Positions 2,536 through 64,000 of a stretch of 64,000 bases of DNA are shown here, in pieces; position 1 is the first letter of the stretch, and each line of letters starts with the position of its first letter. The position numbers and the translations under genes were made by a program. The notes below the pieces were generated by a model. The model saw nothing but the letters and a program-made list of their open reading frames with translations. It searched no databases and was not told the DNA's origin. The DNA lies in NCBI GenBank assembly GCA_008632985.1, contig QPGO01000105.1, forward strand, positions 124,001 to 188,000, read 5' to 3'. Source of the DNA: Psammoneis japonica. Lineage: Eukaryota.

Positions 2536-2557
2536 ATAGCAAGAACTTGCGAGAACG

Positions 2558-11500: not shown

Positions 11501-12400
11501 TCATCCAGTGGATGTGGAGGAAGTCAACAAACAGCATGACTGTCATTGCCAACATCACATTGCTGACACACTGGCTCTTGACTGGGATGCAGTGCAAGAG
11601 ATTTTTGTTTCTTTGCAGAGGTTGGAGACTCAATCCCAAGTGAATCCTCCTGACACCATGGTTGACATGCAGTGGGTCAAAGGCCATGAAACGACAACAG
11701 CCCACATGAGCCCCTGTCCCTTCCAGCAAAACTGAGTGTCTGTGCTGACAAGTTGGCAAGTTCTTTCCAAGGCAGGCACACTGGCACAACACTTTGCTCA
11801 CTCCCCGCATGCCCCGCTGTTCTGCAATGTTGACAGTTCAACAGTCATTGGTGACTTCCAAGTTCAAATCGGTTCTCTGACACAAAGCCTCCAGTCCAGC
11901 CCTCATGACATGCATGAAGGAGAAGTGCGGGTGGTCTGATGAGGTGCACACTCAATTGACTGGTGGGTTCCTTCCAAGCTGATGTCTCCCAACATCCGAC
12001 GTAAGGTGAGCACTGTGAAACTTGTCCAAGATTTGCTGCCAACAAACAAAATTGTCCACCGGTGCAATCCTGCACACCCTGACTGCTGCGTGCATTGTCA
12101 ACATCCCCTTGAAGACAGGGACCACATTTTGCATTGCAACCACAATGAATCATGGCAGCGCACATTCCACCAAGGCTTGCAGAAGAAATGTGACGACATC
12201 AACACCTCTCCTTTGACATGGGATCTGTTGTCACATGCCTTGGAGGGTTGGCTTCATGAAGACATGCACAGCTCACGAGACCACCAGGAATGCAACAAGT
12301 TTGCTGGCACAAAAAATCTGCAGCGCCATTTCTGGTCACCGTTGACATGTCCGAGAGTGCACGCGCACTCCCGATGTCTCCTGTAATCATTGCTGGTGGC
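5520..12400 (+). mobile_element. Decayed non-LTR retrotransposon (LINE): ORF1 and ORF2 with AP endonuclease, reverse transcriptase, RNase H and C-terminal zinc knuckle
   Basis: Ordered motifs across broken frames: APE-like CKPGG, DPLGCWS, SCCRVC, TACAQQ (7990-8220); RT LGHWKA, KEPGNDKMHQLRVTHICEADFQL, GTGQGGGNS, GCVDDT, LKLPKC, HKTLGHCK (8990-10090); RNase H GGDGSV..GTFGW, FCDNSS, QWVKGH (11300-11690); CCVHCQHPLEDRDHILHC (about 12085-12140). Ends are approximate. Confidence 0.9.
5695..7420 (+). pseudogene. LINE ORF1 remnant
   Basis: Chain of same-strand ORF fragments (5695, 5877, 6065, 6331, 7200) upstream of the endonuclease motifs, ending in a coiled-coil-like stretch (QDMEALQSQCSQQLLGVQEQMNQIVQLLQ). 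Confidence 0.6.
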
Positions 12401-22594: not shown

Positions 22595-22631
<37 letters not shown>

Positions 22632-25525
22632 GGGAGAAGGGACTCCTTGTGTCCTGCAGCTTTGGGCTGAAAAATGAAACCTGCAGAGTGCAGCATTGGG
22701 GAGAAACCTGCACCCTGGTGCCCACAACTTTGGCCTGAAGCCTGTGCCATTCACAGCTTTTCTTTGCTGAGGCACAATTTTCTGACCATCTGACCACCAG
22801 CGCACTGCTTTCTGCTTTGACACACCACACCTCCTCTTCTGTGACCTCTTTTGGCAGTGAGGGGTGCGCTGCTGGAATTTGGTGGCTGATTTTTTCTTCT
22901 CCTTGTGCAGGATTTGCTCGAATGCTGTGCCTGCAGATTTTGCAGCATGTCATGCATCAAAGCTGTGCTGCACCCCCCCCCCCCCCCCCCCCCCCAAGAA
23001 AAAAAGAGATGAGTGTGACAGAAAAAATGACAAAGGAAACCTGCTGTGACAATGCAGGCTTCACAAAGCGCAAGTGCATTGTCAACAAAACAACAACAAA
23101 AAAAAGCAGCAGAGGTCTGCATTCTGCCACAAGTTCCATTGTCACTGTGAGTGCCAAAAAAAAGACAGAAAAGAAAAGAAAAGAAGCAACACACAACAAA
23201 CACTCTCCAAGCACTTTGATGCTGTCACCCCACATGCACCCAACATCTGATGAAGCAGCCATGACCCATCAAAATTTTTAATTTCCAAAAAAATTCAATT
23301 TCCACAAATGATTGCATCACCTCTGGTGCAACCACCCACAAAAAACTGCACATGCACAGGTCAGCATCAACAACATGTGACCTCACCTCAAACTTCTGAA
23401 GCCAAAGCCCCAGCATGCAGGCTGTGGCTTTGCAGCACACACCCTCCAAAGAACCAGAAAGAAGTGGCAGGGCTGCCATGTGCAGAAAGCATGTGGAGAT
23501 GCACTGTGGTGCACAGATGCAACCCACAACACTCGAACACATGTGTGCATGCAGATGAATGAGGGCAGCCCCACAGAAGCCAAGCTGCAACAAAATTTGT
23601 GTGGCAGCAGCAGGATCTGCACAACAGAGCTGCATCAGCAGAGCATTGGCACAGGGCCTCCTCCTCAAGACAATGTCTGGTGCCACCTGCCATGTTGCAG
23701 TGCTTTCAGATGCATGCACAACTTGTTCTGGGGCCATTCTCAGGGTGGAAAAGGTGCACAACTGGGCTGGAACATGCAGTCAAAAGTGAGGTTTTGCTGC
23801 ATTTTCTGTCTGGTGTTCAGCCACAAAAACCATGGCTGTCTTTGTCTGCATCTCTTGGTGCTGCCCTGCCAGCAATGGAGAGCCCCCACCTTTGCACATC
23901 CTCTCCAAGAACACACCTTGCTGGCTTCTGGCTGGGTGCATTGGCTCTTGAAGTGAGCATGACACAAAGAAGGGAAAAAACTCTGTGCAAGAGTGCAAAA
24001 GGTTCCCAATGAAAAATGCCAAAACAACCTTCTCTGGAACCTTGAAACAAAAAACAGTGTCAGCATTTCTTTTGACAATTTCTTTCAGAGGAGCTGTGCT
24101 GCCAGAGCAGATCCAAACATTGCTTGCACCTGAAGACAACAGCTTCTTGTCATCAACTGAGGTCAAGCTCAGTGCCTTCCAAACTGGCCCAACCCTTGCT
24201 TGCCATCTCTTTTGACTCTCTGCACACCACATTGTTCCTGCCACAATTTCACCATTGCAAAGGGTCTCACCTTCAACAGCTGGAAAGCAAGTGGCTTGGC
24301 CCAGCTGCTGGGAACTGGAGCATTTTTTGCTTGCCCTGCCCTCTCACTGCCTCATTCTTGCAAACCTGCCATTGCCTGATGATCTGCACCAGCAAAAAGC
24401 AGGCAAAGGCTCTGTGTGTGAGCCTGCTTTTGATGCAAGTTTTGTTGTCATCTGCACACTGACAATGCTTGCCGGTGGAGGCACTGCCAGACTGTTGCTG
24501 CTGCTGTGCCATGTGCTGTGAGGTCTGTTTTTTGCTGATTTTCTCATTGGCGGCTCCTCCTGTTGCTTTGCTTTCACACTGTCACTCTGCCTCCTTTGCC
24601 AAAGAAAAAATGCTTGTGCATGACTTGCTTGTTTTGCATGGACCAACAACTGTGACGCATGCTCACACTCTCCTTTGATGACTTTGTTGAGCTGGTGGTG
24701 CACACACACAGCACAGCAGCACCAGCTTGAGCTCGCTCAGTTGCTGGAAACACCCAGAGGTTCATTTCAAAGCTGGCTTGTCAGCTCTTGAACTTGATGG
24801 AGCTGCTCCACTTTTAAGCTTGACAACTTGCACAGCTTCCCAAGGCACACACAAGAGCTGACTTGATCAACAAACTGGCGGGGCCAGCACAAGAGAAATC
24901 TCTGGTGTGACTTTGTGCTGAACCAGCATGCATGACAGACTGGAAGAAAGCAGCAACTCTGGAGCCACAAGCAATGCTGACATTCACATCCTCAGCAAGC
25001 ATTGTTGCCATCACCTCTCAGCTTGCTGTGTCATCTTTTGTTTCATCAACCGCGGAAGAGCTCTGCTGGCACAGCGGAGCCAGCACATGAGACCACACTG
25101 TCAACTGCTTTGACAGAAGCAGTTTTGCTGGGGAGATGCTTTTTGTTCTTGGTGGTGGTGCTGACTGCTCTTTAGAAAATGTGGCACATGTCAAGGTGGC
25201 ATCATGGGAAAAAGGGGTGCGCACTGCTTGCGCTTTTGCTGGGAGTTGTTCCTCTTGTTCGTTCTTGGTGTGGCAGCACTGGCTGGCTGCTGCTCTTTAG
25301 AAAATGCAGCACATGTGTCAAGGCAGCATCATGAGAGAAAGAGTTGCAAACTGACACCTCAAGATCATTGGACATTGCATTCAAAGCAACACAAGCCAGC
25401 TGCCACTTGTCCCTCGTTTTTTTTTTGCTGCTGTCAAAAAATGGCCGCACCACCCGGTGACCCACTTTGGCTCTTTGTCGGGAAGAAGCTTCCCCAACGG
25501 ACAACCCTGACAACAAGATCGTCAA
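22440..25525. mobile_element. Decayed repeat block with subterminal short repeats, possibly a DNA transposon relic
   Basis: TpA/CpG depletion; recurring CTTTGGCCYGAARCCTGTGCC-like units at 22545-22750; an imperfect direct repeat of about 90-110 bp at 25122-25212 and 25234-25340 sharing CTGCTCTTTAGAAAATG; poly-G and poly-C runs. Confidence 0.55.
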
Positions 25526-33839: not shown

Positions 33840-36800
33840 CTAGGGAGCACCATGGGTTTTTGCTTGACGAGGGTGTCTCTGCTGCTGCCACTGCTAACTG
33901 CCACAAAATCACTTTTTGCACTAGAACAATGAAAGATGCTGACTCTCCATGGAAGAGAGCTGTTGAGACGCATCTTGAGAATTGCGATTCTTGAGAATCC
34001 TGCCATGTGCCTTTCCACAGGAACCCAAAGTTCGGCTGGTGACGAGGACTCTCAAATTCAATTGTTCATCGGGCATCAAGGGTGCACTGTTGGCCCACTT
34101 CCATTTTGGCTCTGTCTCTGTTCCCACATTTGTGCAGAGCACAGAGTGTCCCAAGAAGCCATCAATCCATGCAGCCTCAAGACAGAGAGAGCTGCCATTT
34201 TGCCTTGACGTCTGCCATTTTGCCTTGGTCAAGACTTGACACTGCAGCTGAGTTTTGCACATGGGCAAAACAGCAAAGCCAGTCTGCACTGGTTGGTCAT
34301 TTGGCTTCCATCTCATTCATTTTTGCAGATGTTTCAAGTGCCAATTGAGGGTCCAAATTTGATCTTTTTCTCTTCTGCCAATGTCTCTCAACAAACAGTG
34401 CTGACTTGAAAAAGTCAGAAAAATTTTCTGTCAAAACACCCACTTTTTTGCAAAGAGAGCAGCAAGGAGTGCAAAGCTGCCACACCGCCAATGTGCAAGC
34501 AACAAAGAAACAACCAAAGTGTGGTGAGCAAGCAAAATGCAACAAAAGTGGAGATGATGAACAAAGGGTTGGCATGACCATGAAAATGACGCACTTGGTT
34601 GGCGCTGACTCGCGCACAAGAGACAAACCAGAGCGAGGATCATTGACATGAGTGGATTTGCTGTGGCCCTGCAGAGTGCAAAATTTCACTCACAGCTGAG
34701 GTCGCTCCAGATGTGAGGAGAGCAGACCATTTTGGTGTGATGTGGCTGGAGTCATCGTGGTGATGCCAAAAAAGATGCCGCCATTTTTTTGGTTTCTGTG
34801 GCAAAAACCAACACAGCAAAAAACTTGTGAGCCAGAGCAGAAAAATCCCATGATCACATGCAGAATGTGCCAGCAGCAGGTCATGTGCTCTGATGTCAAC
34901 ATCACACTGTGCACGCCTGCACACATGCACCAGTGCGCACTTCTTCGCACAACAGCTGGTTTTGTTGGCATGCAACGTGTCATTTGAGAGACAATTGTCT
35001 GCATTGATGTGAGCAAATGGCAAGCAGAGCTGACTAAAATTTGCTTGAATTGCATCAAAAATGCTGTGCACAAAAAAAAAAGCACTCAAAAACCCACATG
35101 ACCTGCCAGTCTTTTGCCTGCCATGGCTCAAATCAGCCACTGTTGCTCAGCTGGCTCCCCCTTCTGTGGCAGGTTTTGTCAACATGGGACCGGACTTTTT
35201 CAAAAATGACAGAACCAGTGCTGACATGGTGGATCTTTCAATTTTGAGCGGCAACTCAGTCGCAATGTCATGTGGTGCCATGACGTCTCACTGATGTGTT
35301 TGCTTCATTCAGTTTGTGAACACGCCATTTGTTCGTCGTCGGGTTTTCTCGGACACACCACAACCCAGGCAGACTGTTTTGTCAGGGCCCCAGAGCAGCA
35401 GCTGAACACAGCGATTCAGTTCTATGACACGTAAAAGTGGCACCAGCTTCGAATCACTGACTAAAATCACAACAAACATTCTGGAGCTCGGTCGACCTCG
35501 AACATTTTTAAAATTCCTTGCTTTCATGCATGACAAGTTGTTTTGCGGAATCCCATTTAATGACACAGAGCTGCAAGTTTCAAGATGTCATTGCAACATC
35601 AAAACTGCCGTGGCATTTGGAGCACCTTCCACAGCCCTTTACTTTGCTCATTTGAGTGACTGTTTCTTAGATGTGCTCCAAATGGTGAGCTCATTTTGAC
35701 CACAAAGTAGCAGCTTCAAATTGGTGCTCCGTTTTCTGTGTGGAGTGCACACATTTTTCCAGCACATGACGTCACACAGAGAACACTCGATCACAAAATA
35801 ATGTGTCATGTGAGCTCAACTGCTGATTGACGATGATCGTCTTGTGCTTTCCACTTTCCACTGACTGTTTTTAAATGCTTCTGATGTGAACCAATCACCC
35901 ATGAGTTTTGCTGCAGTCCTGTGACTGAAGAAGATCTTCATGAAGTCGATTTGTGCAGCTCTCAGCTCTCAAACCAAGCGTGTTCTGACATCGCCATAGA
36001 CCGTCATGCACTCTTCCTGCTGCACCATGAACAAACTGTTGCATTGTCAACATGGCCATCCAATGACATTTTTGCCCAATGAAATCTTCTGTGTTTGCTC
36101 TAAATGTGAGCTGTCTGTGTGGCAGAAGACATCTAAATCCATGAGACAAACAAGCAGAGTCGGATGTTTTGTGACCACGGTGGCAGCGAGTGCAGCTTGC
36201 TTGTTCAAGTCGCCAACAGGAAAGATGGAAATCAGCGACTCATTTCATTCCTTTGGTGACACTTGAAAATGAATTGGAGTGTCGACACAACATGGCGGTC
36301 GGCGGTCACCGTGTTTGCTGATCTCTGTCCGATGCAACAACAGGTTTCTCCAAAAGCTTCATGGCCTCAGTGAACCGTGCCCTGGATGACAGGAGCATGG
36401 CATTTTTCAACAATGACACCTTGGCAAATCAAATGAAAGAGAAGCAAGGTGCTGTTCAGATGGGCGTTTGCAAGAAAAATGCGAGGTTAAAAAGCAACAA
36501 ACAACTGGTGTCTGCTTTGGATTTTACCTTGTGATGATGTTGTCGATTGTCGAGATTGTGGCTAAAGAAAATGTAATCTCAAAGGAACTTGTGAACAAAG
36601 AAGAGGGCAATGATGAACATGCTGTGGGTTTGATGACAATTGACGCTGTGTCAGTGGCGCAACAGCTACAAACCGACGAACGCCGCCCCACCCAGGCCAT
36701 CAATCCATGTTGACTCAAGGGAGAGCTGTCATCATGCCTTTGTCAAGAATTGGCTGTCAGCAGGATGAGTTTTTGCACAGGTGAAACCAAAGATGGTCTG

Positions 36801-38315
36801 AATTTTTCTCATCAACATGCGGGCTTCTGAGCTGGATTTTGTCTTGCATGTTCATGGTGCAAGCCTGAAAGCATGTCAGTTTCTCTTCCATTGGTGTTGA
36901 AGTGACAACCAACTTCCAAAAAGTGGCTTCCTTCTCATCAATTTGCACAGCACATCCATGTGTTGTCAATTGCAGGCCAGAATCCAATCTTTTTCTTCCA
37001 CTGGCATTGACCAACAGTTTGGAGTTTGGTTTCACATGGTGAGTGGGCTTCTGAAACAGCTGTCATCTTTCATGCAAGAGGATGCCAGCTTGAAAGCAAC
37101 ATCAATTTCTCTTCTGTTGGTGATGTTGAAGCAACAACCAACTTCTGAAGTGCCCCCCACCTTGTCAGTTTGGACATGTTCACATGCCAACTGTGGGGGC
37201 CCAAATTCAATCTTTCTCTTGTGCCAACCTGGACAAACAGTTTCAACTTGCTTTGAAGTTTGAGAATGTTCCACAAAACACATGCCAACTTTTTGCAGAT
37301 GGCAAATGCAAGCCCACAGCACATTTTTTCATGTGCAAAAAAGCAACAGTGCAGCAAGAGTGGCTGAAGTGCAATGTGAAAATGGTGAAAAGGATCAACT
37401 GATCATTGCTTGAGGCAGTGGTGCATGCTTGCACTCTGTGTGACTCACACGTGGCAGCAGAACAGAGAGCCAGTGAGAGCAGATTTTTGCTGCAGGCATG
37501 CAGAGAGCAGACTTGGTTCACAAGCACCGCTGCTCCAACTGCAGGGATGAGAACAGGCCATTGGGCATGATGTGGCACAGACATCATGGCAACACGGGCT
37601 CAGAAAAAGGTGCCATTGCTTGGCTTGTTTTTGACTTTTGTGTGGCGAGAACCAACTCAATCAGCACAGCTTGCAGAAGCGAGCAAAGTGATGGTGGCAC
37701 CAGCACCCATGGCCACCTCAATGAGCACCATGGAGACAAGGGAAAAGAAGAATGACAAGCAAGGCTTGTCATCATTGGTGTGCATGCTTTGTGCCTGGCA
37801 GACACAGCAGGGCCAGACATGTTTTTTCAGTGTCAGAGCTGGCGCTGGCGCCACGGCAGATCTTCAAAACAAGAGCCGCGCTCAAAGAATTGCAACATCA
37901 TCATGCCATGGTGGCAAAGTCTCTTGCATCACTTGTGGAGATGCTCAATGGCATGATTTGCACCAACGGGTTTGAGACGACTTCAATGTGTGGTGACACA
38001 AACTGCAAACAAACGGGAGCTTGGGGCTCGCATCCTCTGTTCGCACCATCCCACTTTTGCGGAGCATGGTGAGCTGCCAATTTTCACTTTTCACAACAGC
38101 TCTTTTGTGACATGTCTGCATTTTCGTCACCTGGTTTTAGGTGCATGGGACACTCTGTTGGCTTGCGTTGCTTGGCTTGATGTTTCAGCCGCGCGTTTGA
38201 CAGTCTCGTCGGATTTTACAGTGTTCACGCATCCATTGCCACGGAAATGCAAGATTCATTCCCGACACATCAAAAGGCAAGACCCCCTGAGAATGACTCA
38301 GGCATTCCTGACAAA
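33840..38315. mobile_element. Decayed repeat block, unclassified
   Basis: Abrupt onset and end of TpA depletion; Tyr-free ORF fragments on both strands. Confidence 0.5.
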
Positions 38316-41440: not shown

Positions 41441-41706
41441 GATAGATGGATTCGTGAAATAATGATGTGTATTTTGTGGTTGGGGAGAACTAATGTGTTT
41501 TAGTCGGAGTTTTTGACGAACAAGTTCGTGAAACCGCGGTATTGACGATGGCGACATTTCTGGCGTAATCCCGTGGTGGTATTGACATTTCTTATTTATA
41601 AAGAGGAATGTTGTCATAACAATGGGCATTGAAGTCATTTGTCGGACTAAAAGATGAGATATTCTACAAGCTAATCATTTTTTACGTCTATGTCTAACCA
41701 ACGAAT

Positions 41707-41913
41707 TGGGGGAAGTCTCCAGCCAGCTGCTGGCTAAAAAAAGTCTGCTCGTCAGTGCGTTTGGGGTTTTGCCAGTAGAATTTTTACATGCGCAAATGAC
41801 GACGAGTCTGTCCAGCGTTCACCAAAACCCCCTAACGCACAGATTGACAGACTCTTTCAGTATAAATTCTACACAAGATTCTTCAGCCAGCAGCTGGCTG
41901 GAGACTTCCCCCA
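41707..41913. mobile_element. MITE, 207 bp, with perfect 29-bp terminal inverted repeats and a 4-bp target-site duplication
   Basis: TGGGGGAAGTCTCCAGCCAGCTGCTGGCT at 41707-41735 and its exact reverse complement at 41885-41913. GAAT flanks both sides (41703-41706 and 41914-41917). Confidence 0.92.
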
Positions 41914-42606
41914 GAATACGATTGGAAGAATGACTTTTCTTTATTTATTTGTCATAGACAAAAGACCTCACCAAAAACCAATGTCTCTTTCTGCTGTACA
42001 GTAAAAGCATTGGTATGAAATGCCCAAATTAAGTGGGCGTACCACAGTTCTCGGCCCGTTCATTTTCTACGTGGCCTGGTACAACCCAAATCTGTGTAGA
42101 TTCAGTACATTTTGCCCTGTAGAACAGTTTTTGGGAGTGTTTTCTGGCTCGCGACGCAAAATAACACGCAAAATAACACAGACAATGGCGTTTCGCCGAT
42201 TTCAAAAATGCGGTTGTTTCTGAGGCACTTTGCAGTGTACTCTCAACGGAATGTCTTACGTCACAGCATAAGGCATGTGATGAGCTCGAGAGTGCACAGG
42301 TTCACATGGGCAGCTGATGGTGAAAATTCTCACTGAAGGTTCGCATTGACAGCGTCGCTTCTGTTGCATCACGGCCGACCTCATGTGTCACCATTCGTTG
42401 AGGCTTTGTACATTGACGCCCGTTTGACTTGCATATGTTGTCTCTTTCTACATTGTTCTTTTGTTCTGCAGGGTCTCCATCGTCGCAAGGTGTCCCAGAA
42501 ACACTTTTCCTCGTCAAGAATGTCAGTTCTGCAATGCGATGGCCACGGCAATTCCAAAACGAGGCAAAGTCACAGACACAGCATCAGGCTGACTTCACAA
42601 CAAATA

Positions 42607-42957
42607 TCTGAGGACCAAGGAAAGTAAATGCTTGAAATGAAGAGATGACAAACTTGCTTTCCTGAATGACGTGAGTCTAAAACAACTGCATCTTGCGCTT
42701 GCATGGTCCAGGAAGATGCAGAAACAAGATCCACGTGACGAAGCAGAGTGATGCTGACATCTTGGCATTTCATCCACTTGATGCGAGTCACACACAACAT
42801 GCCAACAGATGCTGCACAACCAAAAATGAGGACCACAACAAAACAATGACACGAACGCTCGGAGAAACTCCAATTTCCAACACCATCCAAAATGTCATCA
42901 CCTGACATCGATTCTCCCGATTGCTTCCCTCCTCCCAACTTGTTAAAAGCAATCCCC
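42607..42957 (-). pseudogene. Hypermutated fragment of an ABCG transporter 3' end and 3' UTR
   Basis: Aligns to 46161-46525 in the same orientation: ILDGVGNWSFSERSCHCFVVVLIFGCAASVGML versus ILDGVGNWSFSERWWYCFVVVLIFGCAASVGML. The stop TAA has become CAA, and there is an indel of about 15 bp. Confidence 0.92.
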
Positions 42958-43239
42958 ACAAATCAATGCCACTGCTTGTGCCACATTTGTTGTGCATTGC
43001 TCAACAATGTCTTGGGCCCTGTTGACTCTCTTTTTCTGCATCTCTGCAGTTGCTCATCAGCTTGCCATGTTGCTTGCCTTTGATCTGTTCCTGTTGCCTT
43101 TGCCACTCCACTGTCAGTTGATCTGCACACCAGTTGTTTTGCACCTTGGTTGCACAACCAAGGGGAGGCAACAGATGTCAACAGGGCCAAGGACCATGAC
43201 AACAGCATGGTGTGACAAGTGCTTCCCTCTCTGGATTGC

Positions 43240-44770
43240 TGCTTGACTGTTAGACTGTGGCATCATGGCAGCATCCACATTTGTGACAATGGCATTTGCC
43301 TGATCTGTTGTCCCATCACAATCCTTCACATTTTTTTTTACTCTTTTGTGGACACTCCAAGGGACTGAAGAAGCGTGTGCATGTCTGCTCGCTTCTGCAG
43401 GCAACCATGCATGGTTGGTTTTGCTTTTCGAAAACCAATCCAATGCAGACTCTCATCCACAAACAAGGCATTCTGTGTGCACGGATCGCCATGGACAATG
43501 CCATTCTCTTGAAGTCCTGCCAGAGACAGGATCAGGTCTTTGCAGTGATTGTTTGAAACGGCCGCGCCAACCTTGCATGGAAGCAAAGCACCGCCCAAGT
43601 CATCAAAAGAAGCAAAGCCATCTTCTGCAATGTCCATCACAGATTCTGGACACAAAACTTTTGCCTGCTGCACACAAATCTTTTTGCACTCCAGATTGCC
43701 AACATTGTCGACACCATTTTTGCACAACACGAGCTTGAGAGCCATGGTTTTTTTTTTCACCGCTTTGACACGCCCTGAACACGAATTCAAATGCGCCATC
43801 CCCCAAAACGCATCGGGCAGCACGTGGACACAGAGTTTTTTGCAGGCGCATTTTAAAATTTCAATCAACTGGTCTCTCAAATGGAACTCACAAAGAAGAC
43901 ACCTTGAACCTGGCATTGTCCAATTGCACATCGTGACCCCTGATGCATTGCCTGACATGCACTCAACAAGCCAAAATTGAGAAATGTCAAACAAAATCAG
44001 CCGCGTGTGGAGAGTGGCCACCGTCAAAACAAATGTGAGCTCCGCAGTTGATGACCTCACCAAAGCCTTGGTTGTCAATTTTCACTTTCGCTTCAAAGGT
44101 CGCACTGATGGAAGCCTGGAGTCTCCAAGTGGTGAAAATGCCAAACTTGTCTGTGCTTCTTCGCATCTCTTTCAAATCGGTCTTCTGATTGAATGTTGTG
44201 TCTGCACTTGTTCACGGATGCTCCTCTGAGTTGACAATTGATTGTCCACCCATTCCTTTGAATGCTCCCTCCAAATGCAGCATCAAAAAAGTGGCTGTCC
44301 GGTGTTCTGTCTGCATTTCACTGAGTTTTTTGGCCACAGGTTCTTTGTGTGCAGAAGGCTGCCCTTCAACTCCTTCAAATTTCTTGAACAAATTTGCGTT
44401 TGTCAACCGGTTTCTCTCTTTGGAGCCCAGGCTTGCAGGAGTTGCATTGGGAGCAGCCTTTGCATCTTTCATCAAGTGGGCCTCCTCCAACACATCTGTC
44501 AAGTCAGTGAGACCGGTGGGCACAGAGGCAGCCGTCCAAAAAGCGCTGTTCCTGTGGATTTGTCCAGGAAGCTGGAGCCAGGGGCGGTCGACCCGTTTTC
44601 AGCTTGTGCAAGCATGTGGCACCATCTTCAGAGCTCTCAAAGCCACAAATGGAGCAGCCCTTCTGATCAATCAAACAGCACGCATCAAAGCCATCAAGCA
44701 CATTCTCAAATTCTTCCTGATTGCTGGGAACAACATTTTCCGTTTTGTCGTCCGCAATGAACAGTGTCAT
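43240..44770 (-). pseudogene. Crinkler (CRN)-like gene relic: short N-terminal header, restriction-endonuclease-like domain and kinase domain
   Basis: In order across frames: GFESSEDGATC (header); IVNSEEHP; FGIFTTWRL..TFEAKVKIDNQGFGEVINCGAHI; TRLILFDISQFWLVE; MALKLV; LQENGIVHGDPCTQNALFVDESLHWIGF (HGDPR-type catalytic loop). The family call is from motif recall, not a search. Confidence 0.65.
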
Positions 44771-45830
44771 TGTCTTCAAAGTTGTTCTTAAAGTTGCGTG
44801 CTGATGTGCAGAAACAACATGTTGATGTGATGCCATTTCCCATTTTGTCAATGTTCAAGTGTTCAAGTGCTGGGGCACCCGCCCGCCCACCCCAGTCCAC
44901 CGCAGTCTGTCCATCTAACCGACCAAGACACACAGAAAGCAGAAAGTCCCTCTCACTGCTTGAAATGGGGCAGTCACAGCACCTCACCCTGACCCTCTCC
45001 CCTGCCAGGGGACAGGGGACAAACTTGTTCCCCTTTTGTGTTTCACAAGAAAGGTGGAGCTGCAGACCACATGAGGGAGTGGGGGCACAGCAGCGCTGCA
45101 GCAAAAAAAGCTCCCATCTGGCAGAACATGCTGCGATTGTGGGAAACAGCAAGATTGCTGCCAGATGAGACCATCCAATGCCTTTTGCATCTTGCAGTCA
45201 ACATGCTCCTTGAGCACAACTTTGATTTCAGCCTTTTGATGAGTCAGCTCATGAGTGTCTCGCCATGTGGTGCTGTTGAGTGCTGCTTTGGCGATGTGAG
45301 TGTTGCGCGGCACCTGAGAAATCTTGGAATGGAGAAGCTGTGCTCGCAAGGCCAGTTGATGGAGCTCATGCTCAAAGCCATTTAACGTGCAACGGAAAAT
45401 GTTGCATTGCTTTTTGCCAGGTTGGAGTCCCAAGGCAGGTGGGAAAGCAGAGTTCTGCAATGTTGCTGGCTGCAGTTGGCACAGATTGAATGTGTCAATG
45501 ACTGATGAGTTGTTGCTTTTGACAATTTCAGAGGAATGACTGCCAAACCCTTGCCATCACAGTTGCCACAATCAAGACATGTGCTGGCATCTGCCATGTG
45601 GTGTCGTCAGGGTCCACTTTGCAGAGTCGATCCAGAAGAGAGTCACTCCAAGTTCAAAGTGTTGAAGTCACATGCCAGGCTTTTTTGTTTGTGGGGTTAA
45701 AGCCACAACAACAAAATGTGACAGATGAAGCATTCGAAAAGATGGTCTTTTTTGTCATCTGATTGGATGAATGACTTTTCTGTGGTGGAGAGACAAACCA
45801 AAACGACCTCATCCCAACCATTTTGTCGGT
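44770..45830. other. TpA-depleted decayed sequence, unclassified
   Basis: Same mutational composition as the neighbouring pseudogenes; no recognisable motif. Confidence 0.4.
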
Positions 45831-46313
45831 CTCTACACTACAGTAGGCGCAAGGGCTGCCGCACGCACAGCGCAGTGCGATCCATCGTGCAGCAATGACA
45901 TCGAGTGGGCATCAAGACAAGAATCGGCCGCGGCGACAAAAAACGACGGACGAAGCTGAAAGACGCGTTTGTTTCGTGGTGAATAGATATCACGCAAGGA
46001 GGAAACAGGTGGTTGAAGAACTTTGCTGGTGTCATCAAACCGGTAGAAAGTGGGCCTGCCGAGTGAAAGGGAACGCACGGCGGTTTCTGGATATCCTTTT
46101 GTCTCCGTTCTCTTGTTCAATGTCTATCCTTTTGAAGATTCCTTTTTTCTCTCGAGTGCATCCGAGGACCAAGGAGAGTAAACGCTCGAAATGAAGGGAT
46201 GTTAAATTCGCTTTCCTAAATAACATGAGTCTAACAACTGCATCTTGCGTTTACATGGTCAAGGAAAATACAGAAACAAGATCCACGTAACGAAGTAGAG
46301 TGATACGGACCTC

Positions 46314-49300
46314 TTAACGTTTCACCCAGTTGATACGAGTCGCACGTAACATACCAACAGATGCTGCACAACCAAAGATGAGGACCACAACAAAACAATA
46401 CCACCAACGTTCGGAGAAACTCCAATTTCCAACACCATCCAAAATTTCATCGCCTGATATGAAGTCGCCCGTTACTTCATCTAGAAACTGCTTCCCTCCT
46501 CCCAACTCGTTGGCAGCGAGACCCTGCAAGATGTACCGAAGAGGGTTGATGTAATAAAGCCATATCCACCATCCCGGAATATTGTCCGGAGCAATCAGGA
46601 AACCCATGGTGAGGATAAAGGCGATCAGCATGAGACCTCCAACAACCGCAGCGATTCCAATGTTTGGAGAAATGAATGATGTGAGTTGCCCAAATAAGGG
46701 CAACACCCAGTACGCTGCGAGTGTCATTATTAAATTGTAGAGAACGCGACCGATGTCCGAATCGAGACCGACGATCCAATAAAAGATTACCCAGGACACA
46801 ATTGCCATGAAGAAGTTGAACGGAATCTCAGCGATCTCGACGGCCATTGCGTAAACATACTTGCGGTAGGTACCGGATGAGATCTCCCTGTAGTAGACAG
46901 CTCGTTCCGAAATAAGCGGAACGGCTGCGGACGTGAGTGGAACAGTAGCCAGATTCACGAAATTGAAGATAGCTCCAATAATGTTGAAAGCGCCATCTGC
47001 TGTATTTTCGTAATCCATAAAGACTAGGCTCACGAGAAGAGACGCCGAAAGTGTCCACCAAAAGCGCACAGCCATGTAAGTTGGGGTGCGCCAATGACTT
47101 AGCAATTGTCTCTGCAAAACGCTGCGGAGCTCGGCGTACCGGCTGCGTGTCTCCTCCTCCACACTAATGCCGGCAGCTTTGGCCGAACAGTCATTGACGG
47201 TCGCATTGACACCTGATGCCATGTCAGACTGCTTGTACAGCTTTCCCCAGTCCTCGCTCTCGCCTCCGGGGCCACAGAAAATGTCCAACGCATGATCTGC
47301 AGGGTTGGTGCCTTCCTTGAGAGCGAAATCGTCGTTTCCAGATATGGATGTCATGTAGTTGCTGATCTCAGGGATGGGACCATTGTAGACACACACTCCT
47401 CCCTTGCGGAGCAAGAGAAGATTATCAAACGTTTCAAATACTTCCCTCGAGGGCTGATGAATGGTGCATACAACGGTGACACCTCGAGTCTGCGCCGCTC
47501 GCTGCAGTGACGAAACGACGAGCGACGCAGAGAGCGACGCCAAACCGGACGTCGGTTCGTCGGCAAACAGAATACTCGGATTGGCCACCAATTCGACACC
47601 AAGCGTGAGGCGCTTCCTAGCATGCTTTGGTAGTCCTTCTCCTGCAGCTTCGTCTCCCACAAGGATATCAGCGTACTCTTCCAGCTCGAGAAGTTTCATA
47701 TTGTCCTCACAGAACGCTGTCCTCGCCTCCTCGGTGAGCGAAAAGGGGCGAAGACGCATGCGTGCCGCGAACAAGAGGGATTCCCGGACTGTCATTGCAG
47801 GATTGTGCAAATCGGTCTGCTCGCAGTATCCTGCAATGACTTTCCACGTATCCTCAGTCTTGGGCACTCCGTTGATGGCAATGTCTCCCGTAATGTGTCC
47901 GCCAGTTTTGTACCCTGCAAGAACGTCGAGGCTGCGGAGTAGCACAGCAGGAAGAAGCTTTCGGTGTTAGACGCATGAAGAACAAACGAATGGTGTAGTT
48001 TGGGAAGGAAAAAAATACATTGTTTCACTCACAGTGTCGTCTTGCCCGCACCACTGCTACCCATGAGCGCCGTCATGGTGCCAGGTGAAAACGTTGCCGT
48101 GATACCGCTGAGAAGACGAAGTCTCCCAGGTTCCGGCGGTTCCAGATCTTCAGCAACACCGGCTTCAGCAGCATCCATGGCATCCTCTACACGAATCGAC
48201 TTTGCAGAGTCCGCCAATACGGTTCGGGATGACAGCGCCTCAACTCCAACGGTACGTCGCAATACCCACTCTTGCGCGGCTCCCTTGCGGGCCTGACCAT
48301 ACTCGCGTGCCGTAATGGGTACTCGTTCGTCCGACTCGAACGAAGAGTCCCTGCGTTCCGTGACGCTTCTTTCTTCTCCCTCAACGTCATCCGCTTCTTC
48401 CTTCTTGTCGTCGCCTTCCTTTTTGTCTTCAGGAGTTATGTCGACGTCCACCTCGTAGACCATGTTACGAGCCGTCAAGTGTGCCGCGGGAGCTGGCGGT
48501 ACGGACGAGTTGTCCTTGGTGGTAGTTGACTCGGCCCAATCTTCATTATCCACTTTTTTCTTGTTGTCCATGAATTTCAGAAACTTCAATTTCTTGTTGC
48601 TATTGTCCGCCGTCAAACTCATGCCCGACGTGACTTGGTACCGCTTGGTGGTGGGTCCAAACCAATTTTGACTCTTGTGCAACAAGATGCATCCCAGAAA
48701 TTCGTACAAAATGGTAAAGGATACAATCATGTAAATGTCAAAAAACATGACACTAATGGGCGTTTGCATACCCGGCTTGGCATCGTCGTAGGGGATGCGG
48801 GGAATGCTAAAGACCGTTTCTCCAAATTCCGACCCAGGAATCCCATCAACAGTACGCTCGTGTAGTTCATTAATGAGAATGCCCTCAAACGCATACGCAC
48901 AGGGAGACAACCACGAGAGCCATCGTAACCATGCGGGCAACTCGGGATATTGCGGAGCAAAGCCCGCCGTGAGGTTGAACACCATGAGAAAGGCCGGTCC
49001 GAGTGCCGCCGCGACATCGTTCGATGGCAATCCATACGACAATACTCGCGAAATGGACGATCCACAAGACGTCAAGCACAGCGCCATGAGCCAAAAGTAC
49101 AAAAATCCCGGTCCCCCGTAGGTTTCCATTCCCACCAAGAAAAAGGTTGTCAGACACATGACGGTTGTTTCGCAAAAGATGACGGGCCAATTGCAAAGCA
49201 CATTGGTGATGTAGTACACCTTGGTGCTGTAAAAGTTGGACCGACGATGAGTATAAAAGGTACCGCGGTCGGAAAAATTGGCATCTTGCGGAGCATTGGC

Positions 49301-50782
49301 GGACGTGGAGAAGAGGAGTGCCAACATGGTGTAGGCGTATCCACTTCGAGTCTGGGTTCCCGCAGCGTCATCCGGCGTGTTGAGAAAGAGCGTTCCAACA
49401 AAGAATCCAAAGATAATGGAAAAGAAAATTCGAAAAATGGTTCCCGGATTTCGTAGCACCAACTTTTTGCTCCGCCCACACAAGAGTTTGAATTGTTGCC
49501 AAAAGGTACGGGCATACAAGGGAACGGCGGTGGGTGCCTTTTCTGCCTTGGTGGATTCGGCCACGTCGAGTTCTTGGCGGAGCGCCTCACCGGCCGCCGA
49601 GTCATCAAACTTGCTTGCCAAGGCAGACGAATCCAGTTTCTCATTATTGCTGTCTTCTCCGGAAGCATAATAATCTTGTGGACGACAAGCACAACGAAGC
49701 AAGAATTCGGGTTCGTCCATTTCGGGTGGTTTCTCGAGTCCCAAGTCGACAAGATGCTGCAAAGCATTCTCGCGTGGTCCCGAATACACCATTTCACCGT
49801 ACTGATTCAACACGAGAATGCGTTGGAATTGCTTGTACATGTCAATGGAGGGTTGCAACAAACTGATGATACCGGTAATTCCTGTTTTAGAAATGGCCAC
49901 AACAAAATTCTTGCAACTCGCCAGAGCCGATGCGGAATCGAGTCCATTGGTAATCTCATCCATCAACAACACCCGGAGATCTTGTCCCACGGCTTGTTCC
50001 ATGACTTTCACGCGACGCTTTTGTCCTCCCGAAACACCACGAATTTCGGCATTTCCCACCACGGTACCGGCCACATGATCGAGACCGGCCAATTTGAGAT
50101 AGGATTGCAATTCTTCTTCCGTGGCTTCTCCGGCACAGGCTTGTGCAAACTCAATCGTTTCCTGTACCGTCAGTACGGGCGTCAAGGTCAAATCACCCTG
50201 ATCACAAAAGGCGGCACAACGACGAAAGCAACCCTCGTATTCCTTGGCGGATGGATCACAACCACCAATCAAGAGAGATCCCTGACTGTTTTGAAACGCA
50301 GCACCGGTTTCGCCCTGACTCTTGCTGGCAATGGCTCGTAGTAGGGTGGATTTGCCACTGGAACTCGGAGCGATAATTAACGTGGTTTCACCCGGATTGA
50401 GGACTATAGAAATGTTGGTAATGACATTGGGATTGCTCTTGGTATGAACACTCTCATCTTGTTCATCTAATTCTTGAGGACGCGGAGACGCACATCCCAA
50501 TTTTCCAGCAAGCCACGAACCCATAATGGCCGTGACGAAATTCGGTGCACCAGGAAGTGCATCATCCTTTTCACAAGACGTTGTGGCATCCTTGGGTATC
50601 GATAATTGGCGAATCGCAATGGGAGCCGTCTTATCCCACGTATCACCAACCTGTTCAAACACTTGACTGCGAAAGGCGTCTTCGGTGATTTCCAATTCTT
50701 CTTCTTCTGCTTCTGGAGTTGCTTCTGGGGTTTCTTCTGGAGGAGACGAGTGATGATCGTCGTCCTTATCCGACGACGACAT
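46314..50782 (-). CDS. Full-size ABCG (PDR-type) transporter, NBD-TMD-NBD-TMD
   Basis: Exons 50782-48033 and 47931-46314, intron 48032-47932 (GTGAGT...GCAG). NBD1 has APSSSGKST, VSGGQKRRV and MDEITNGLDS; NBD2 has GSSGAGKTTL, GYCEQ, DEPTSGL and CTIHQPS; two multi-TM blocks. Confidence 0.95.
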
Positions 50783-51169: not shown

Positions 51170-54100
51170 CGTTGCTGGCATGACAATTGCTCACAATTTT
51201 TGCAGTGCAGGACCTGCTGCACACTTGTCTGTGGGCTTTGTTGTCACATTGCACCCTCAAATCTGAGTGACATCATTCTTTCGTCATTCACAAAAATGTG
51301 ACCCAAAGTGCAAATGGCACATCAGCACAAAAAACAAACCACCACTGGCACGCCACAATGACACACACACTCTGCTCTTCTTTTTTGTGTCTGGTGCCTG
51401 TCAGAGTGCACCACCTGGTGTGTGCTTTGCAGCCAGATTGCACTTGGATGGCAGCTCAGCCCTCTGCCTCTTCTTGCTCTTTCTTGCTGGTGCATGTGTT
51501 GCGACCATTGTTTGGGTGTGTGGAAAGGAGGTTTCTTGTGGCATTCTTTGTTCACTTGGCTGTTGTCACCACCAACAAATTGTGGCCTTGCACTGTGCCC
51601 CACATTCTTCTGCACTGCAAGTGATCCCATGATTTCAGTTGTTTGGTTTGTGATCTGATCAAGCCTGCCACCTCAAGTTTCTGCTCTCCTGCAAGTGTTT
51701 TTTCTTGCTTCAAACCATGACATGCTTTGGGGCTGAAGGACGGTGTTGGGGAACAACTTTTTGTGCACCTCTGCCACAGCCACTCCATCAGAAAGGAAAA
51801 TGGCATCAACTGCTGATGGCCTTGTTGAGATCAAAGCTTCTTTCCAGATGTGTGCTCCCATCAACCAGAAGCCATGAAGCACCTGGCCAACCTTTGTAGC
51901 ACCTCAATTCTCACACTGAGTCAGTTCTTTGTCACAAAAAAAACACTCAAGCAAGGGATGGTGTTCAAAAGCTGTTGCACAGAACTTGCATCCTTCAAAA
52001 GCACATCCTGTCCAACACAATGGACCCCTCTGATGTCTCCTCCATTGCACTGCTTTTTAAAAAAGCCCCCCTCAATGGGGGGATCCAATGAGTGATGACA
52101 AGATGCCTTGCTTTTGTTTTGACAGACGTTGGGCCTCACAAGGAATGCCCAACTTGCTCTCAAGGCTTGCCAAATGAAAGCAACCATTGAGACACTGGTG
52201 GACTGCACTTCACAGCACTTTTTGACCCCCCTGACATGCACACTGCAGCCATCGCCCCCTGACATGCAATGCAGCCATCAAGGCTGGAATGAGTTCTCTG
52301 GGTCACAAAGCTTTGTTTCACAAGCTGAGAGTGTGTGCCATGATGATTTGCCACATGGCATTTGCCAGTGGTGTTTCTCAACAACTTCCAACAGCATGCA
52401 CAATGCACAGCCAACTGGGCAGCTCTTTGTGCTGTGCGCCCCCCACTGCGGCACTTCCTTTGCAACCACGGTGGTGACTGGGGGGTTTGCCATCAGATGT
52501 GACCCACCAGATGACCTGCTGCAATGAACACACCACTTCCATTGCCTTGAGTTGCCATGTGCAATTCACAAGCTCCTGTCATGCTCCAACATGTTCCCCC
52601 AAAACAGTGCCAAGTTGACAGAGATGAGCATTGTGAAGGGTCCTGCTGTGCAATCTGGGGAAGAGAAAAAGAGGCACAAAAAAATGCTGTGTGTGGAAAA
52701 GCTGGACAAAAGGCCCTGCAAGCAGAAAAAGTGAACACTCCAAAACCCCCCACTGTGTCAATTGAGGTCTTGTTTGCCTGTCTCACTGTGCTCTTGTCTT
52801 CTGACAATCCAAGCGGTGTCACTGGTTTGTGGGCATGTTTTGAGGAGTGCCTCACATGCACATTCCAAGAAGAAGCAATGAGAGAGTCATTTTCTTAAAA
52901 CAAAAAACAAACACTCATCACAACAATGAAAACAACTGCTGCACATGGCAAGAGCACATCTGCTTTTTCTGCCTCTCATGACAACAAATGACAACGCCCC
53001 TGGAGCTGGCACACTTTGCTCACTTTGCATGTGTTGTTTCTCTTTTTCATGGCACAGTGGCTGCAGCAGACTTTCAAGTGAGAAGTTTCTGCATCCTCTT
53101 CTCATTGCAGGCTGTTTTGCTTCCCCTGCTCTGAAAGTGCTCAGTGTGCAAACAACATCTTTCAATCTGCCACATCTGAGCCAGCCCACCACGGTTCACC
53201 ATGCATCACACAGACCTGTTTTTGGCATTTTTGTGCATCAAGTTTCTGTCATGCACCAAAGACATGCAAACTCTTTTGAATGCTGCAGGTCTGATTTGGT
53301 GAGAAATGCACTGCAATTCTCACCTTCCGTCCATGTGTCCACTTTGCATTTTGTCAATTGTTGCCACTTCCACACTTGCAGAAAATTGAGGAAGTTGTCA
53401 AAAGCAACCACACACCACACAATGGAAACTTGCTCAAAAAACATGTGTCATCCAATGCATTTTGCACTTGCAGCAGCATGTAAAATTCCTTTCACATGTG
53501 TCTTCCAGGGTGAGCATTTTCATTGCTGGTTCTTGGAAAGCACTCTCTTTCTTGTGTGAGGCAAAAACATGCCACCATCATCAGATTTGTCACGCTGCAC
53601 ATTCCTGACGGAAAATGTTTTCACAGCTGGAAGTTTTTGTGAATTTGTTTGCTCTTAAGAACAGACAAAGCTTTGCTCTCAAGATCAATGACCACTCGTG
53701 TTGCAACACAACTCAAGCAGTGAAAATGGGAAACAAAGAGCAGCAGCTTGTTTGGGTGCACTGTGCAACAGGTCTTGTCAGTGTTCCAAAACATGCACGC
53801 GCAAACAAAAAAGACATTGTTTTGGTTTTACAGGTTGACTGCAAAATTGGTTGTTGCACACAATCTGTTGCTGTGGGGAATGGTGAAACATCTGTTGTTT
53901 TTTGCTGGTGAACAAGTGCCTGCAAATGGGTGAGTTTTGATGTGAGACACACCAATTTTTTCATTTTGGAGCCTGATCACCTTGCACTGACAATGTGGAA
54001 AACCCCATTGCTTGTTTGTCCAAAAAGGTTTCTCACATTGGACAAAAACATGCCAGGCCCAGGTTCTCTCAGAAGACTCAGTCAAAATGCACATGAGACA

Positions 54101-54960
54101 TGCCCACCACTCCATTGGCTGAACTTGATTGAACCTCAGTGCAGCTTGTTTTTCTTTGGAGGTTTCTTCTCTCTCCCTCTGCCATGGTGCAAACATCATG
54201 ATGGTTTGAAGCAGGGCCAATGATGACAACTGATGGGAGCTGCCAACACAAGAGCCACACAAAAAGAAAACACCTCTTTTTGCCTTGTTGATGCCTTCTG
54301 CACTGACCATGCATTGACAGCAACAACAGCTTCAATGATTTGTTGTGGCAGAAGGTGCACACACCTTGTGAAACTTCATGGCATGGGCCCAGCCTCAAAA
54401 CCAACCTTCCTTATTGCACACTGTGCTGACAAGCAGATCTCATGACAACAAGTCATTTTGCTCAGTGACATCAAACACAAGAAATGCAAGCTGTGCCTTG
54501 ACCCTTTTGCAAGCAAGCCTCAGAGTTGTTCTGCTAAACAACCATGTTGTGATTGTTGAAAGGCGATTGCCACTCTTTCTTCTAAAAACTGGCGGTGCAA
54601 GCTGGGCTTCAACAACAGCTGTGTGTTGCACTTTGCTGCTGTGGCAACTCACAAGAACAGCCAATGCAGTCACATGGTGAGAGCTGTGGCCCAAAACAAA
54701 AAACAACTGAGCTCACCATTGTTCCCTGAGCCAGCAGGCCACAGTGCTGGCAACACCAGCAGCCAAGTTTGTTGTTTGGAGCTGTCATTGCTGTCATGTT
54801 CCATGCTTTGTCATGTGTGTTGATTGCCATCCAACAATGATGAAGTCACCACCGCATCTGACAATCACTGACAACAACATCTCTTGTTGGGCTGGAAGCC
54901 AAGGATTGGTTCCACCACCTCATGGGAAAGGTTTTCAAGGGTCTCAGTCCCAAGGATTGC
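51170..54960. mobile_element. Decayed repeat block, unclassified
   Basis: Very strong loss of TpA and CpG; Tyr-free ORF fragments. Confidence 0.5.
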
Positions 54961-62574: not shown

Positions 62575-64000
62575 TGTCATTCTGAAGGACTTCATCCATG
62601 CCGCAGTTGCAACAACAACGAAATGACATGTTGCAAACAAGCAGCGCAACTGTGCGGTCACAGTTGAGTCGTCGCAGTGCCGTCCACACGTCGCACGGCA
62701 CACAGGCTCAGAGCAAACCGGAGCAAGCGTGGTGGGACACTCAATGTGGCACACAAAATGGGAGACATTTCATGTTTCACGGATGCAGCTTCCGGGTCTC
62801 AACATTCCCCTTTCGATTTTCTGTGCCGTTTTTGTGTTGTCACGGTGGAAGTGCAATGACCATGATGGTCGATTTTCACATCAATGTGAGTGGGGCCCAA
62901 ATGCACTGACCATTGGAACCTCATCAAATCGATGGTGCAGAACACTGTCATGTCACCAGCGCATCTGGGCCCCACTTGCATTGCCATGAAAATCGCGACG
63001 GCATTCTCTCACTCTCATGGCTGATTTCTTTCTGCAGGCGCACCCAGAAAAGTGCTGCGCACCGATGCTGTGCAAGCGCCTGTGCTGATGAGGGGTCACG
63101 GGCTTGATTTCTAGTTTCCTTGGTGCAAAAGAGCACAGCCCTTGGCCTTGAACACCTCGTGCTCCAAAGGATGACGGCCAGCTCGGAGCTCACATGCAAA
63201 GCACACTGCCGTTGTTGGTTTCACAGTGCCGCACAGTTTTTCAGCTTGATCAGTGCAGGCTTGGTGCATTTCCATGTGAAGGAAACAATCCACCTGGCAC
63301 GCAAGCAGTGCAGCAATCGCCCAGCTCACAGACTTCCATTTGTCTGCACCGGTGCTGTTCTTGATTTCGTCTGCGCACCCGCTTGGCGGATTAAATCACT
63401 TTCTCAATGGGAAGCGAGTTGCTTTTGTCTCAGATTTTTTGAATTTTTGATTTCAAAACTTTGCACATGTGCTTCCATTGGTTCTGTTCTGTGTCCCCGC
63501 ATGTCTTGTGTCCTTGTCAGCACTGGGCTGAATCGCGCGCTTCTGCTGAATGAAATGTTGCACCAAGATCCACACAATGCCGACCGACCAACCAACCGAC
63601 GCACCACACGGCATGTGACTGACTCAAGGTGGTCATTGCGCTGTTCACATGTTCATGTCCTTTGAACAATTCAAGTGCAATGTTGTTCAATGCACAAAAG
63701 AATTTTTGCAATCAAGCATGCTGGATCAATGAAAGTTCTAATTTTTGAGTTTCGGCATCGGAGCCACCACACACAAACAAATCACACAAACAACAAAGAC
63801 CAGACTCACACTCAACACTCACAACAGCAAGCTCTCTCTCTCTCTCTCTCTCTTGTTGTGGCTTTCATGTTGCAAGAGTTCTCTTTGTGTGCAATGTTGT
63901 TTCACCCACCATGAAGCGACTCACTGAAATCAACACACAAGCCATTCTCTCCTTTGTGGAGGAGCGCATTCACAATGGAAAATTCCCAAACATTGTGACA
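62575..64000. mobile_element. Decayed repeat block running off the window end, unclassified
   Basis: TpA nearly absent from about 62575 onward; Tyr-free ORF fragments. Confidence 0.45.

Follow-up and report, generated by a model that had tools for sequence, protein, structure and literature searches.

In Neurospora and other fungi, repeat-induced point mutation (RIP) degrades duplicated DNA by dinucleotide-specific transitions; it needs duplication, mutates both copies and makes TpA from CpA. Deaminases of the TadA/ADAT2-3 and ADAR types are known mainly as RNA enzymes. The closest precedent for the pattern described here is a 2026 preprint on Bigelowiella natans, whose main text reports that integrated viral DNA is hypermutated by A>G and T>C at TpA only, as measured in mutation-accumulation lines, names an ADAT2-like candidate and proposes adenine deamination (10.64898/2026.01.13.699255). 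The nucleocytoplasmic large DNA virus (NCLDV) region described there has a TpA content of 3.3% of dinucleotides (10.64898/2026.01.13.699255). For diatoms, our literature searches yielded no paper that describes TpA as depleted or hypermutated. Here, we analyse a stretch of 64,000 nucleotides from Psammoneis japonica (assembly GCA_008632985.1, contig QPGO01000105.1, positions 124,001 to 188,000 of the forward strand), called the window below and numbered from its first letter. It contains an intact ABCG transporter gene and, inside a long intergenic block close by, a fragment of that gene's 3' end. We consider it probable that this fragment is a dead partial duplicate that records transitions at TpA and CpG, targeted by position.

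The ABCG fragment and its intact counterpart

The fragment and its counterpart occupy the following positions.

42606..42957, minus strand: dead copy of part of the ABCG tail (local alignment, tblastn, outgroups)
46160..46524, minus strand: intact ABCG tail matching the fragment (end of the coding sequence at 46314-46524, sequence like a 3' untranslated region (3'UTR) at 46160-46313)
46314..50782, minus strand: intact full-size ABCG (PDR-type) transporter gene (reading frames, splice sites, Pfam)

The coding sequence of the intact gene consists of two exons (50782-48033 and 47931-46314), which are separated by an intron of 101 nt with GT..AG ends (48032-47932). Pfam detected ABC_tran and ABC2_membrane in the product of exon 1; in that of exon 2 it found the remainder of ABC_tran and again ABC2_membrane. 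The gene thereby has the full-size ABCG/PDR layout, each half having a nucleotide-binding and an ABC-2 membrane domain, and its homologues carry the same Pfam families. The best named relatives of the product are diatom proteins with 50-62% identity, namely those of Attheya (62%) and of Skeletonema and Thalassiosira (59-61%).

Local alignment of 42606-42957 with 46160-46524 yielded 350 columns with 85.1% identity. The comparison covers this single fragment, which is among the main limits of the analysis. The 52 mismatches comprised 38 transitions and 14 transversions, and the fragment carried a 2-base insertion and a 15-base deletion relative to the intact copy. When the letters were reduced to purine and pyrimidine, the identity rose from 85% to 95.4% (328 columns). 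Thus, the fragment differs from the intact copy mostly by transitions. It covers approximately the last 68 codons and 150 nt of the 3'UTR; tblastn placed it at residues 482-549 of the exon-2 frame with 70.6% amino-acid identity (E 1e-23), and a Pfam scan of its 66 amino acids returned no family. Conserved W, W and Y residues are altered, and the stop codon TAA of the intact gene (46314-46316, minus strand) reads CAA. The homology terminates at 42606, where a repeated element starts. As to a retro-copied (processed) origin, no A run is visible alongside, and no intron position falls within the span of the fragment. Upstream of the fragment, tblastn detected no further ABCG homology, so that a decayed whole tandem copy of the gene is unsupported.

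The preliminary description of this locus, based on alignment by hand, had counted 16 TpA sites in the intact copy. Local alignment reproduced its figures exactly, with 10 of these sites reading TG in the fragment, 4 reading CA and 2 kept, and the three sequence examples quoted there are visible in the alignment. Its CpG counts for 46161-46471 (17 sites, 8 of them TG/CA, 2 CT and 7 retained) likewise agreed with our list of individual sites; over the full alignment the intact copy has 19 CpG, of which 5 became TG, 5 CA and 2 CT, while 7 were kept. All 14 changes at the 32 TpA positions were either A>G (10) or T>C (4). Transitions affected 14/32 TpA positions but only 7/159 other A/T positions (Fisher test, p=4.5e-8), which confirmed the claimed context specificity at TpA, and 10/38 CpG positions versus 7/121 other C/G positions (p=0.001). 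Expressed as odds ratios, the bias is 17-fold for TpA and 6-fold for CpG, and the rate of TpA loss derived from the fragment is 23 times background. Two further statements of the preliminary description held in part. That TpA was hit more completely than CpG is not significant in the fragment alone (14/16 versus 12/19, p=0.14) but is true window-wide. TG and CA products, taken as a sign of changes on both strands, are indeed both present, and their 10:4 split is indistinguishable from 1:1 (p=0.18). Both retained TpA (42625 and 42678) stand as TAAA in the fragment's own sequence; sites next to an A-tract were kept in 1/4 and other sites in 1/12 cases, a comparison of very few sites (p=0.45).

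The direction of the changes had been deduced from the intact frame (Tyr>His, stop TAA>CAA), and outgroups bear this out. Eight of the 11 aligned homologues extend to the C-terminus. All 8 have the motif RWWYC, and all 8 end at the stop position of the intact gene with ...W-x-(K/Q/M)-R, whereas the fragment translates as RSCHC...KWMKC and reads through the former stop. At the coding sites, the homologues share the states of the intact copy and none shares those of the fragment. Thus, TG/CA at the coding sites is derived in the fragment. The fragment states destroy the shared residues and the stop and could therefore not occur in a working paralogue. The same data bear on a reversed polarity, in which RIP-like C>T changes at CpA/TpG would have made the TpA of the intact gene. 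RIP produces just such a TpA versus CpA/TpG contrast between copies, and TAA versus CAA at a stop codon is its classic outcome. However, the outgroups make the intact states ancestral, the compartment of the degraded copy is nearly devoid of TpA instead of enriched in it, and the duplicated genes of the window are untouched. We give a reversed polarity next to no credence.

Depleted and gene blocks of the window

The larger finding is a compartment-wide erasure of TpA, for which the fragment serves as a polarised internal control, as the following data support. We delimited blocks by per-kilobase dinucleotide ratios and a simple segmentation of the window. Seven depleted blocks, to which no strand is assigned, make up 47% of the window.

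1..2500: TpA/CpG-depleted block (dinucleotide ratios, segmentation)
5600..17399: TpA/CpG-depleted block, the longest, ending at a run of N (dinucleotide ratios, segmentation)
22600..25400: TpA/CpG-depleted block with the lowest CpG, observed/expected (O/E) 0.04-0.08 (dinucleotide ratios, segmentation)
34000..38200: TpA/CpG-depleted block whose old internal repeats emerge only when the letters are recoded as purine or pyrimidine (ratios, recoded search)
42270..45830: TpA/CpG-depleted block containing the fragment, with 16 TpA in about 3.6 kb; single-copy in reads
51200..54900: TpA/CpG-depleted block, beginning upstream of the ABCG start codon at a distance of about 420 bp
62600..64000: TpA/CpG-depleted block, cut off by the window's end

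The run of N is an assembly gap of 566 N (17400-17965), which either lies within the longest block or closes it. A short, very CpG-dense stretch lies at 45800-46000, at the edge of the block with the fragment and just downstream of the 3' end of the ABCG gene.

The TpA O/E was approximately 0.0-0.1 in the depleted blocks and 0.4-0.9 in the gene blocks. The corresponding CpG values were 0.04-0.56 and about 0.8-1.3, and TG/CA reached an O/E of about 1.5-2.4 in the depleted blocks. The total composition of both compartments was as follows.

Length: depleted blocks 29,985 nt; gene blocks 32,156 nt
TpA count: depleted blocks 97; gene blocks 1305
CpG count: depleted blocks 551; gene blocks 1788
TpA, % of dinucleotides: depleted blocks 0.32; gene blocks 4.06
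CpG, % of dinucleotides: depleted blocks 1.84; gene blocks 5.56
TG+CA, % of dinucleotides: depleted blocks 22.31; gene blocks 14.66

TpA and CpG thus decreased by 3.74 and 3.72 percentage points, respectively, and TG/CA increased by 7.65 points, while the shifts of the other strand-symmetric dinucleotide classes did not exceed about 2.1 points. Since the loss nearly equals the gain and the other classes hardly moved, the composition of the depleted blocks is that of the gene blocks after the two conversions seen in the fragment. The equilibrium frequencies imply a TpA loss at least 35 times the background G:C>A:T transition rate, which agrees in order of magnitude with the ratio of 23 from the fragment. 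The outcomes were strand-symmetric and unclustered in the depleted blocks (TG 3273, CA 3416; chi2 60.7, 57 windows of 500 bp, p=0.34), and this analysis revealed none of the strand-coordinated runs expected of a processive single-strand deaminase. TpA depletion was uniformly near-complete across the blocks, whereas CpG depletion depended on the block, which suggests two processes with different speeds.

The sites that survive in the depleted blocks have a context of their own. Surviving TpA are strongly enriched next to A-tracts, with 51/97 in TAAA/TTTA as compared to 190/1305 in the gene blocks (p=9e-17). ATAC and GTAT are absent from the depleted blocks and occur at 115 and 99 sites, respectively, in the gene blocks. 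CpG survival also varied with the flanks; the ratio of depleted to gene-block counts was best for the GC-rich GCGC (0.77) and worst for ACGA with its A/T flanks (0.12).

The depletion is confined to regions, as is apparent when the depleted blocks are compared with the gene blocks, with non-open reading frame (ORF) DNA near genes and with a duplicate that served as a symmetric control. Non-ORF DNA within the gene blocks (7,612 nt of spacers, flanks and one intron) had a TpA O/E of 0.70 and a CpG O/E of 0.97. Since this DNA retains TpA, the mosaic does not reflect a division into coding and non-coding DNA. The control is a 2.9-kb duplication (19106-21981 versus 2549-5412, 92.8% identity), which keeps 97/124 TpA and whose changes at TpA are symmetric, with 8 TG + 8 CA in one direction and 6 + 7 in the other. 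The duplicated gene encodes a class-C receptor (ANF_receptor + 7tm_3), and both copies lie in normal blocks with open frames. The duplicated pair was spared and the affected block is single-copy; hence, the process is not repeat-induced.

These observations also bear on another account, according to which a genome-wide TpA>TpG/CpA bias acts without targeting and selection alone keeps TpA in the gene blocks. Depleted blocks begin only 200-750 bp from the ends of ORFs, so that the mosaic tracks gene density, as this account would have it. It is at odds, however, with the TpA retained in the non-ORF DNA of the gene blocks, and with the 2.9-kb duplicates, which lost TpA symmetrically and at about the general rate. 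A repeated element at 41706-42270, which is 0-600 bp from a gene, speaks against it as well. This element keeps 29 TpA in 596 nt, but at six of these TpA many other copies among the reads have G or C and thus TG/CA. A gene-adjacent repeat that keeps TpA where other copies do not is consistent with position-dependent targeting, and we regard an untargeted bias as improbable.

Block contents, flanking repeats and sequence reads

Scans of the depleted-block ORFs against Pfam covered 219/247 of them (all 69 of at least 120 amino acids and 150/178 of 70-119 amino acids) and returned no credible family. Five weak matches (Rep_fac_C, zf-RVT, PRS7_OB, CBP_BcsO and TIR_3; E 0.003-0.008) were below the curated cut-offs and were treated as chance. 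No match to Rfam was found in the window. When the products of 23 gene-block ORFs were compared with the depleted blocks by tblastn, only the ABCG tail and one boundary overlap appeared, and the window accordingly offers no second internal control. We also searched for old repeats in the purine/pyrimidine alphabet, which is blind to transitions, with reversed decoys whose maximum score was 55. Only two pairs exceeded the decoys (scores 108 and 93), both inside 34000-38200.

37013-37316 / 36792-37092: old repeat pair, 83% identity in the recoded alphabet
37131-37692 / 34286-34846: old repeat pair, 77% identity in the recoded alphabet

With just two internal pairs, we rejected one recognisable repeat family as the substance of the blocks. 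In appearance the blocks are old, unique intergenic DNA that has reached mutational equilibrium, with very old foreign DNA as a possible origin. They contain many ORFs of 120-250 amino acids in several frames and on both strands, for example 43338-44081 (minus) and 8683-9402 (plus). TAA and TAG occur 52 and 19 times (71) in 30 kb of depleted DNA, whereas the gene blocks have 287 and 273 (560) in 32 kb. The long open frames are compositional artefacts, because TAA/TAG have been nearly erased.

The fragment directly abuts repetitive DNA.

41706..42605, no strand assigned: repeated elements abutting the fragment and ending exactly at 42605 (read depth, inverted repeat)

Within this stretch, a 208-bp element (41706-41914) has terminal inverted repeats of about 28-35 bp (94% over 35 bp) and looks like a family of miniature inverted-repeat transposable elements (MITE-like). 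Read contigs of run X1 have loose ends at 41705/41706, 41913, 42385/42398 and 42605, and their summed depth over 41706-42605 reached 11,124 as compared to about 64 in the flanks; summed contig depth is not equivalent to copy number.

For the comparison of the window with the reads, contigs of run X1 were placed at a likeness of at least 90. A single 3578-nt contig covers 42864-46440 at a depth of 64.5 and differs by two letters and one gap. The depth over the ABCG gene was 60-62 versus 64.5 over the block, so that the block is single-copy in the reads. The comparison of the window with run X1 listed 18 variant letters, of which 16 interchange TA or CG with TG/CA. The single-copy block contained only three single-letter differences, all of them at target dinucleotides. 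At 42764, the former stop codon of the fragment, the window has TG and the reads have TA, and at 43771 and 44023 the window has CG where the reads have TG/CA. As the variants are of the target type, the process looks recent or ongoing.

These reads also speak to a technical origin of the pattern, namely modified bases of heterochromatin miscalled as G or C during sequencing or assembly. The read platform is not on record and X1 possibly is the source sample, which leaves room for such an artefact. Yet the separate contig build from the reads yielded one clean path at single-copy depth, transversions and indels are also present in the fragment, and miscalls at a symmetric site would conflict between the strands and not give clean TG or CA. 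We find an artefact scarcely credible.

Among the neighbouring genes, three MORN-repeat paralogues on the plus strand (26045-27559, 29018-30469 and 32062-33588) share one gene block, and a BTB-domain gene (30717-31283, minus strand) lies among them. Two tandem ferric-reductase-like paralogues are encoded on the minus strand (55376-57561 and 58009-60266; about 72% identity over 1.3 kb). The MORN and ferric-reductase paralogues are located in normal blocks. The best named relatives of a DUF389 gene (61014-62156) are from Cyclotella, Phaeodactylum, Fistulifera and Nitzschia (46-52% identity), and none of the closest proteins on record for the window's products exceeded 77% identity. In its content the window resembles nuclear DNA of a diatom or near relative.

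Proposed mechanism and relation to known systems

According to the explanation we favour, two context-specific transition processes run far above background in the long intergenic blocks. The first converts TpA to TpG or CpA (A:T to G:C on either strand) at about 20-35 times the rate of other transitions, and the second converts CpG to TpG or CpA at about 6 times. The differences between fragment and intact gene are a local record of both. Targeting follows position and neither repetition nor coding status, in that genes with their introns and flanks of a few hundred bases escape and DNA farther away is driven to near-zero TpA. The data show the spectrum, its polarity at coding sites, its restriction to regions, its strand symmetry and the sparing of duplicated genes, whereas the chemistry is inferred. 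The first process is most likely enzymatic: an ADAT2/TadA-like or other deaminase would turn adenine into inosine at TpA where duplex DNA lies in silent chromatin. The second is most simply explained by ordinary 5-methylcytosine deamination, which would act in the same methylated compartment.

Several points weigh against this explanation. Of the changes at TpA, the 8 that fall in the 3'UTR part of the fragment have no outgroup to set their polarity. Transition targets aside, 26/280 positions also differ from the intact copy, 14 of them by transversions, which means that the fragment is old or stems from a diverged paralogue. The evidence on paralogues and on the extent of the depletion comes from this window and its reads. 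Run X1 may be the source sample of the window or another haplotype and does not count as independent support. Pfam detected no viral or transposon domain in the 219/247 scanned block ORFs, so that a foreign target of the B. natans type is not apparent. Finally, a change from A:T to G:C at TpA could equally begin at thymine.

Some of these points favour ordinary divergence, that is, an origin of the fragment from another ABCG paralogue that already carried the TG/CA states. The non-target differences together with the two indels would fit such an origin, from a paralogue that may lie outside the window. On the other hand, the coding states of the fragment abolish the common stop and break residues on which the 8 homologues covering them all agree, the bias at TpA and CpG is strong, and the composition of the fragment resembles that of its host block. 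Furthermore, the reads showed only one alternative letter over the fragment (at 42764), which argues against a closer paralogue; a more diverged one is possible. Overall, we judge ordinary divergence to be very improbable as the source of the pattern.

Concerning the chemistry of TpA loss, adenine deamination is the most likely candidate, since the presumed edited A follows T as in substrates of TadA/ADAT and ADAR, and since a like signature was measured de novo in B. natans. In their preference for a 5' U/T and in the reading of the edited A as G, these deaminases resemble the process outlined here, as far as the available descriptions go. To our knowledge, the effect of A-tracts on surviving TpA is not a described property of them. 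The same regional process might instead rest on another chemistry. A modified thymine at TpA, such as 5-hydroxymethyluracil or a further oxidised form, could mispair with G, or symmetric adenine methylation at TpA could raise deamination. 5-Hydroxymethyluracil prefers TpA in dinoflagellates. The strand-symmetric, unclustered outcomes would fit duplex DNA that is marked at a self-complementary step; both TpA and CpG are such steps, and they decay in the same blocks. From the letters of one assembly, A>G on one strand and T>C on the other look the same, which deprives this chemistry of a distinguishing sign, and the authors of the only measured precedent read it, in their main text and likewise without a test, as adenine deamination. 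A modified base is unlikely in our view, though it retains a chance to be taken seriously.

The process in B. natans, as its preprint's main text presents it, shares several features with the P. japonica window. In both cases, the changes consist almost only of A>G and T>C at TpA and give TpG and CpA on both strands, and they are restricted to particular nuclear regions, which form clusters depleted in TpA and enriched in CpA and TpG. Like diatoms, B. natans belongs to the SAR supergroup (Stramenopiles, Alveolates and Rhizaria). In contrast to that precedent, 47% of the present window is affected and TpA has fallen to 0.32% as compared to 3.3% in its NCLDV region. CpG decay, which the main text of the preprint does not describe, accompanies TpA loss in the same blocks here. 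Moreover, the affected DNA includes a piece of a host gene, and the scanned block ORFs carried no detected viral or transposon domain. The rates were measured de novo there and are deduced from sequence here, where the only hint of an elevated de novo rate is that 3 of 3 differences of the single-copy block fall on target dinucleotides.

The likeness to RIP lies in dinucleotide-specific transitions that degrade non-genic or duplicated DNA and leave a compositional scar between compartments. The direction is the opposite, however, since the outgroups and the nearly TpA-free degraded compartment indicate that TpA is removed, and the 2.9-kb duplicate was spared while single-copy DNA was affected. 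5-Methylcytosine-driven decay is matched by the conversion of CpG to TpG/CpA (10/19 in the fragment), by the CpG deficit (1.84% versus 5.56%) and by decay that is slowest in GC-rich and fastest in A/T flanks, but CpG accounts for only half of the mass balance, and the TpA half has no counterpart there. Among related metagenome loci, the 11 best of 80 (L001-L011, 36-62% identity) contained no 1-kb window with a TpA O/E below 0.41, although their flanks are short. The pattern is a different one in the metagenome loci that did have windows below 0.2, which combined 64-70% G+C with a CpG O/E above 1.2. This comparison weakly suggests that the trait is lineage-specific.

Implications

The fragment and its intact parent offer a direct, polarised readout of a regime that has removed TpA almost completely from about half of the window, and near-complete removal on this scale is very unusual for a eukaryote. 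Its reach is wider than that of the precedent in B. natans, which belongs to a different SAR lineage and, in the main text of the preprint, concerns viral insertions. In P. japonica, the depletion is pervasive, is coupled to CpG loss and follows position, not foreignness or repetition. The finding therefore bears on the targeting mechanism and on the age of the system. A more far-reaching proposal, which we put forward tentatively and hold to be possible but doubtful, is that this diatom lineage runs position-targeted DNA editing from TpA to TpG/CpA in all DNA outside active transcription units, whether it is single-copy or a stray host-gene piece. Such editing would be a chromatin-guided, repeat-independent and chemically opposite counterpart of RIP, homologous to the process in Bigelowiella and possibly ancestral to SAR.

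On the practical side, the spurious long ORFs in the depleted blocks would be false calls that lead gene finders astray. A TpA term specific to the compartment is needed in substitution models and in dating, and a simple scan of TpA O/E would yield a map of silent chromatin with sequence as its only input. Should an enzyme cause the loss of TpA, it may be a natural adenine editor that acts on duplex DNA.

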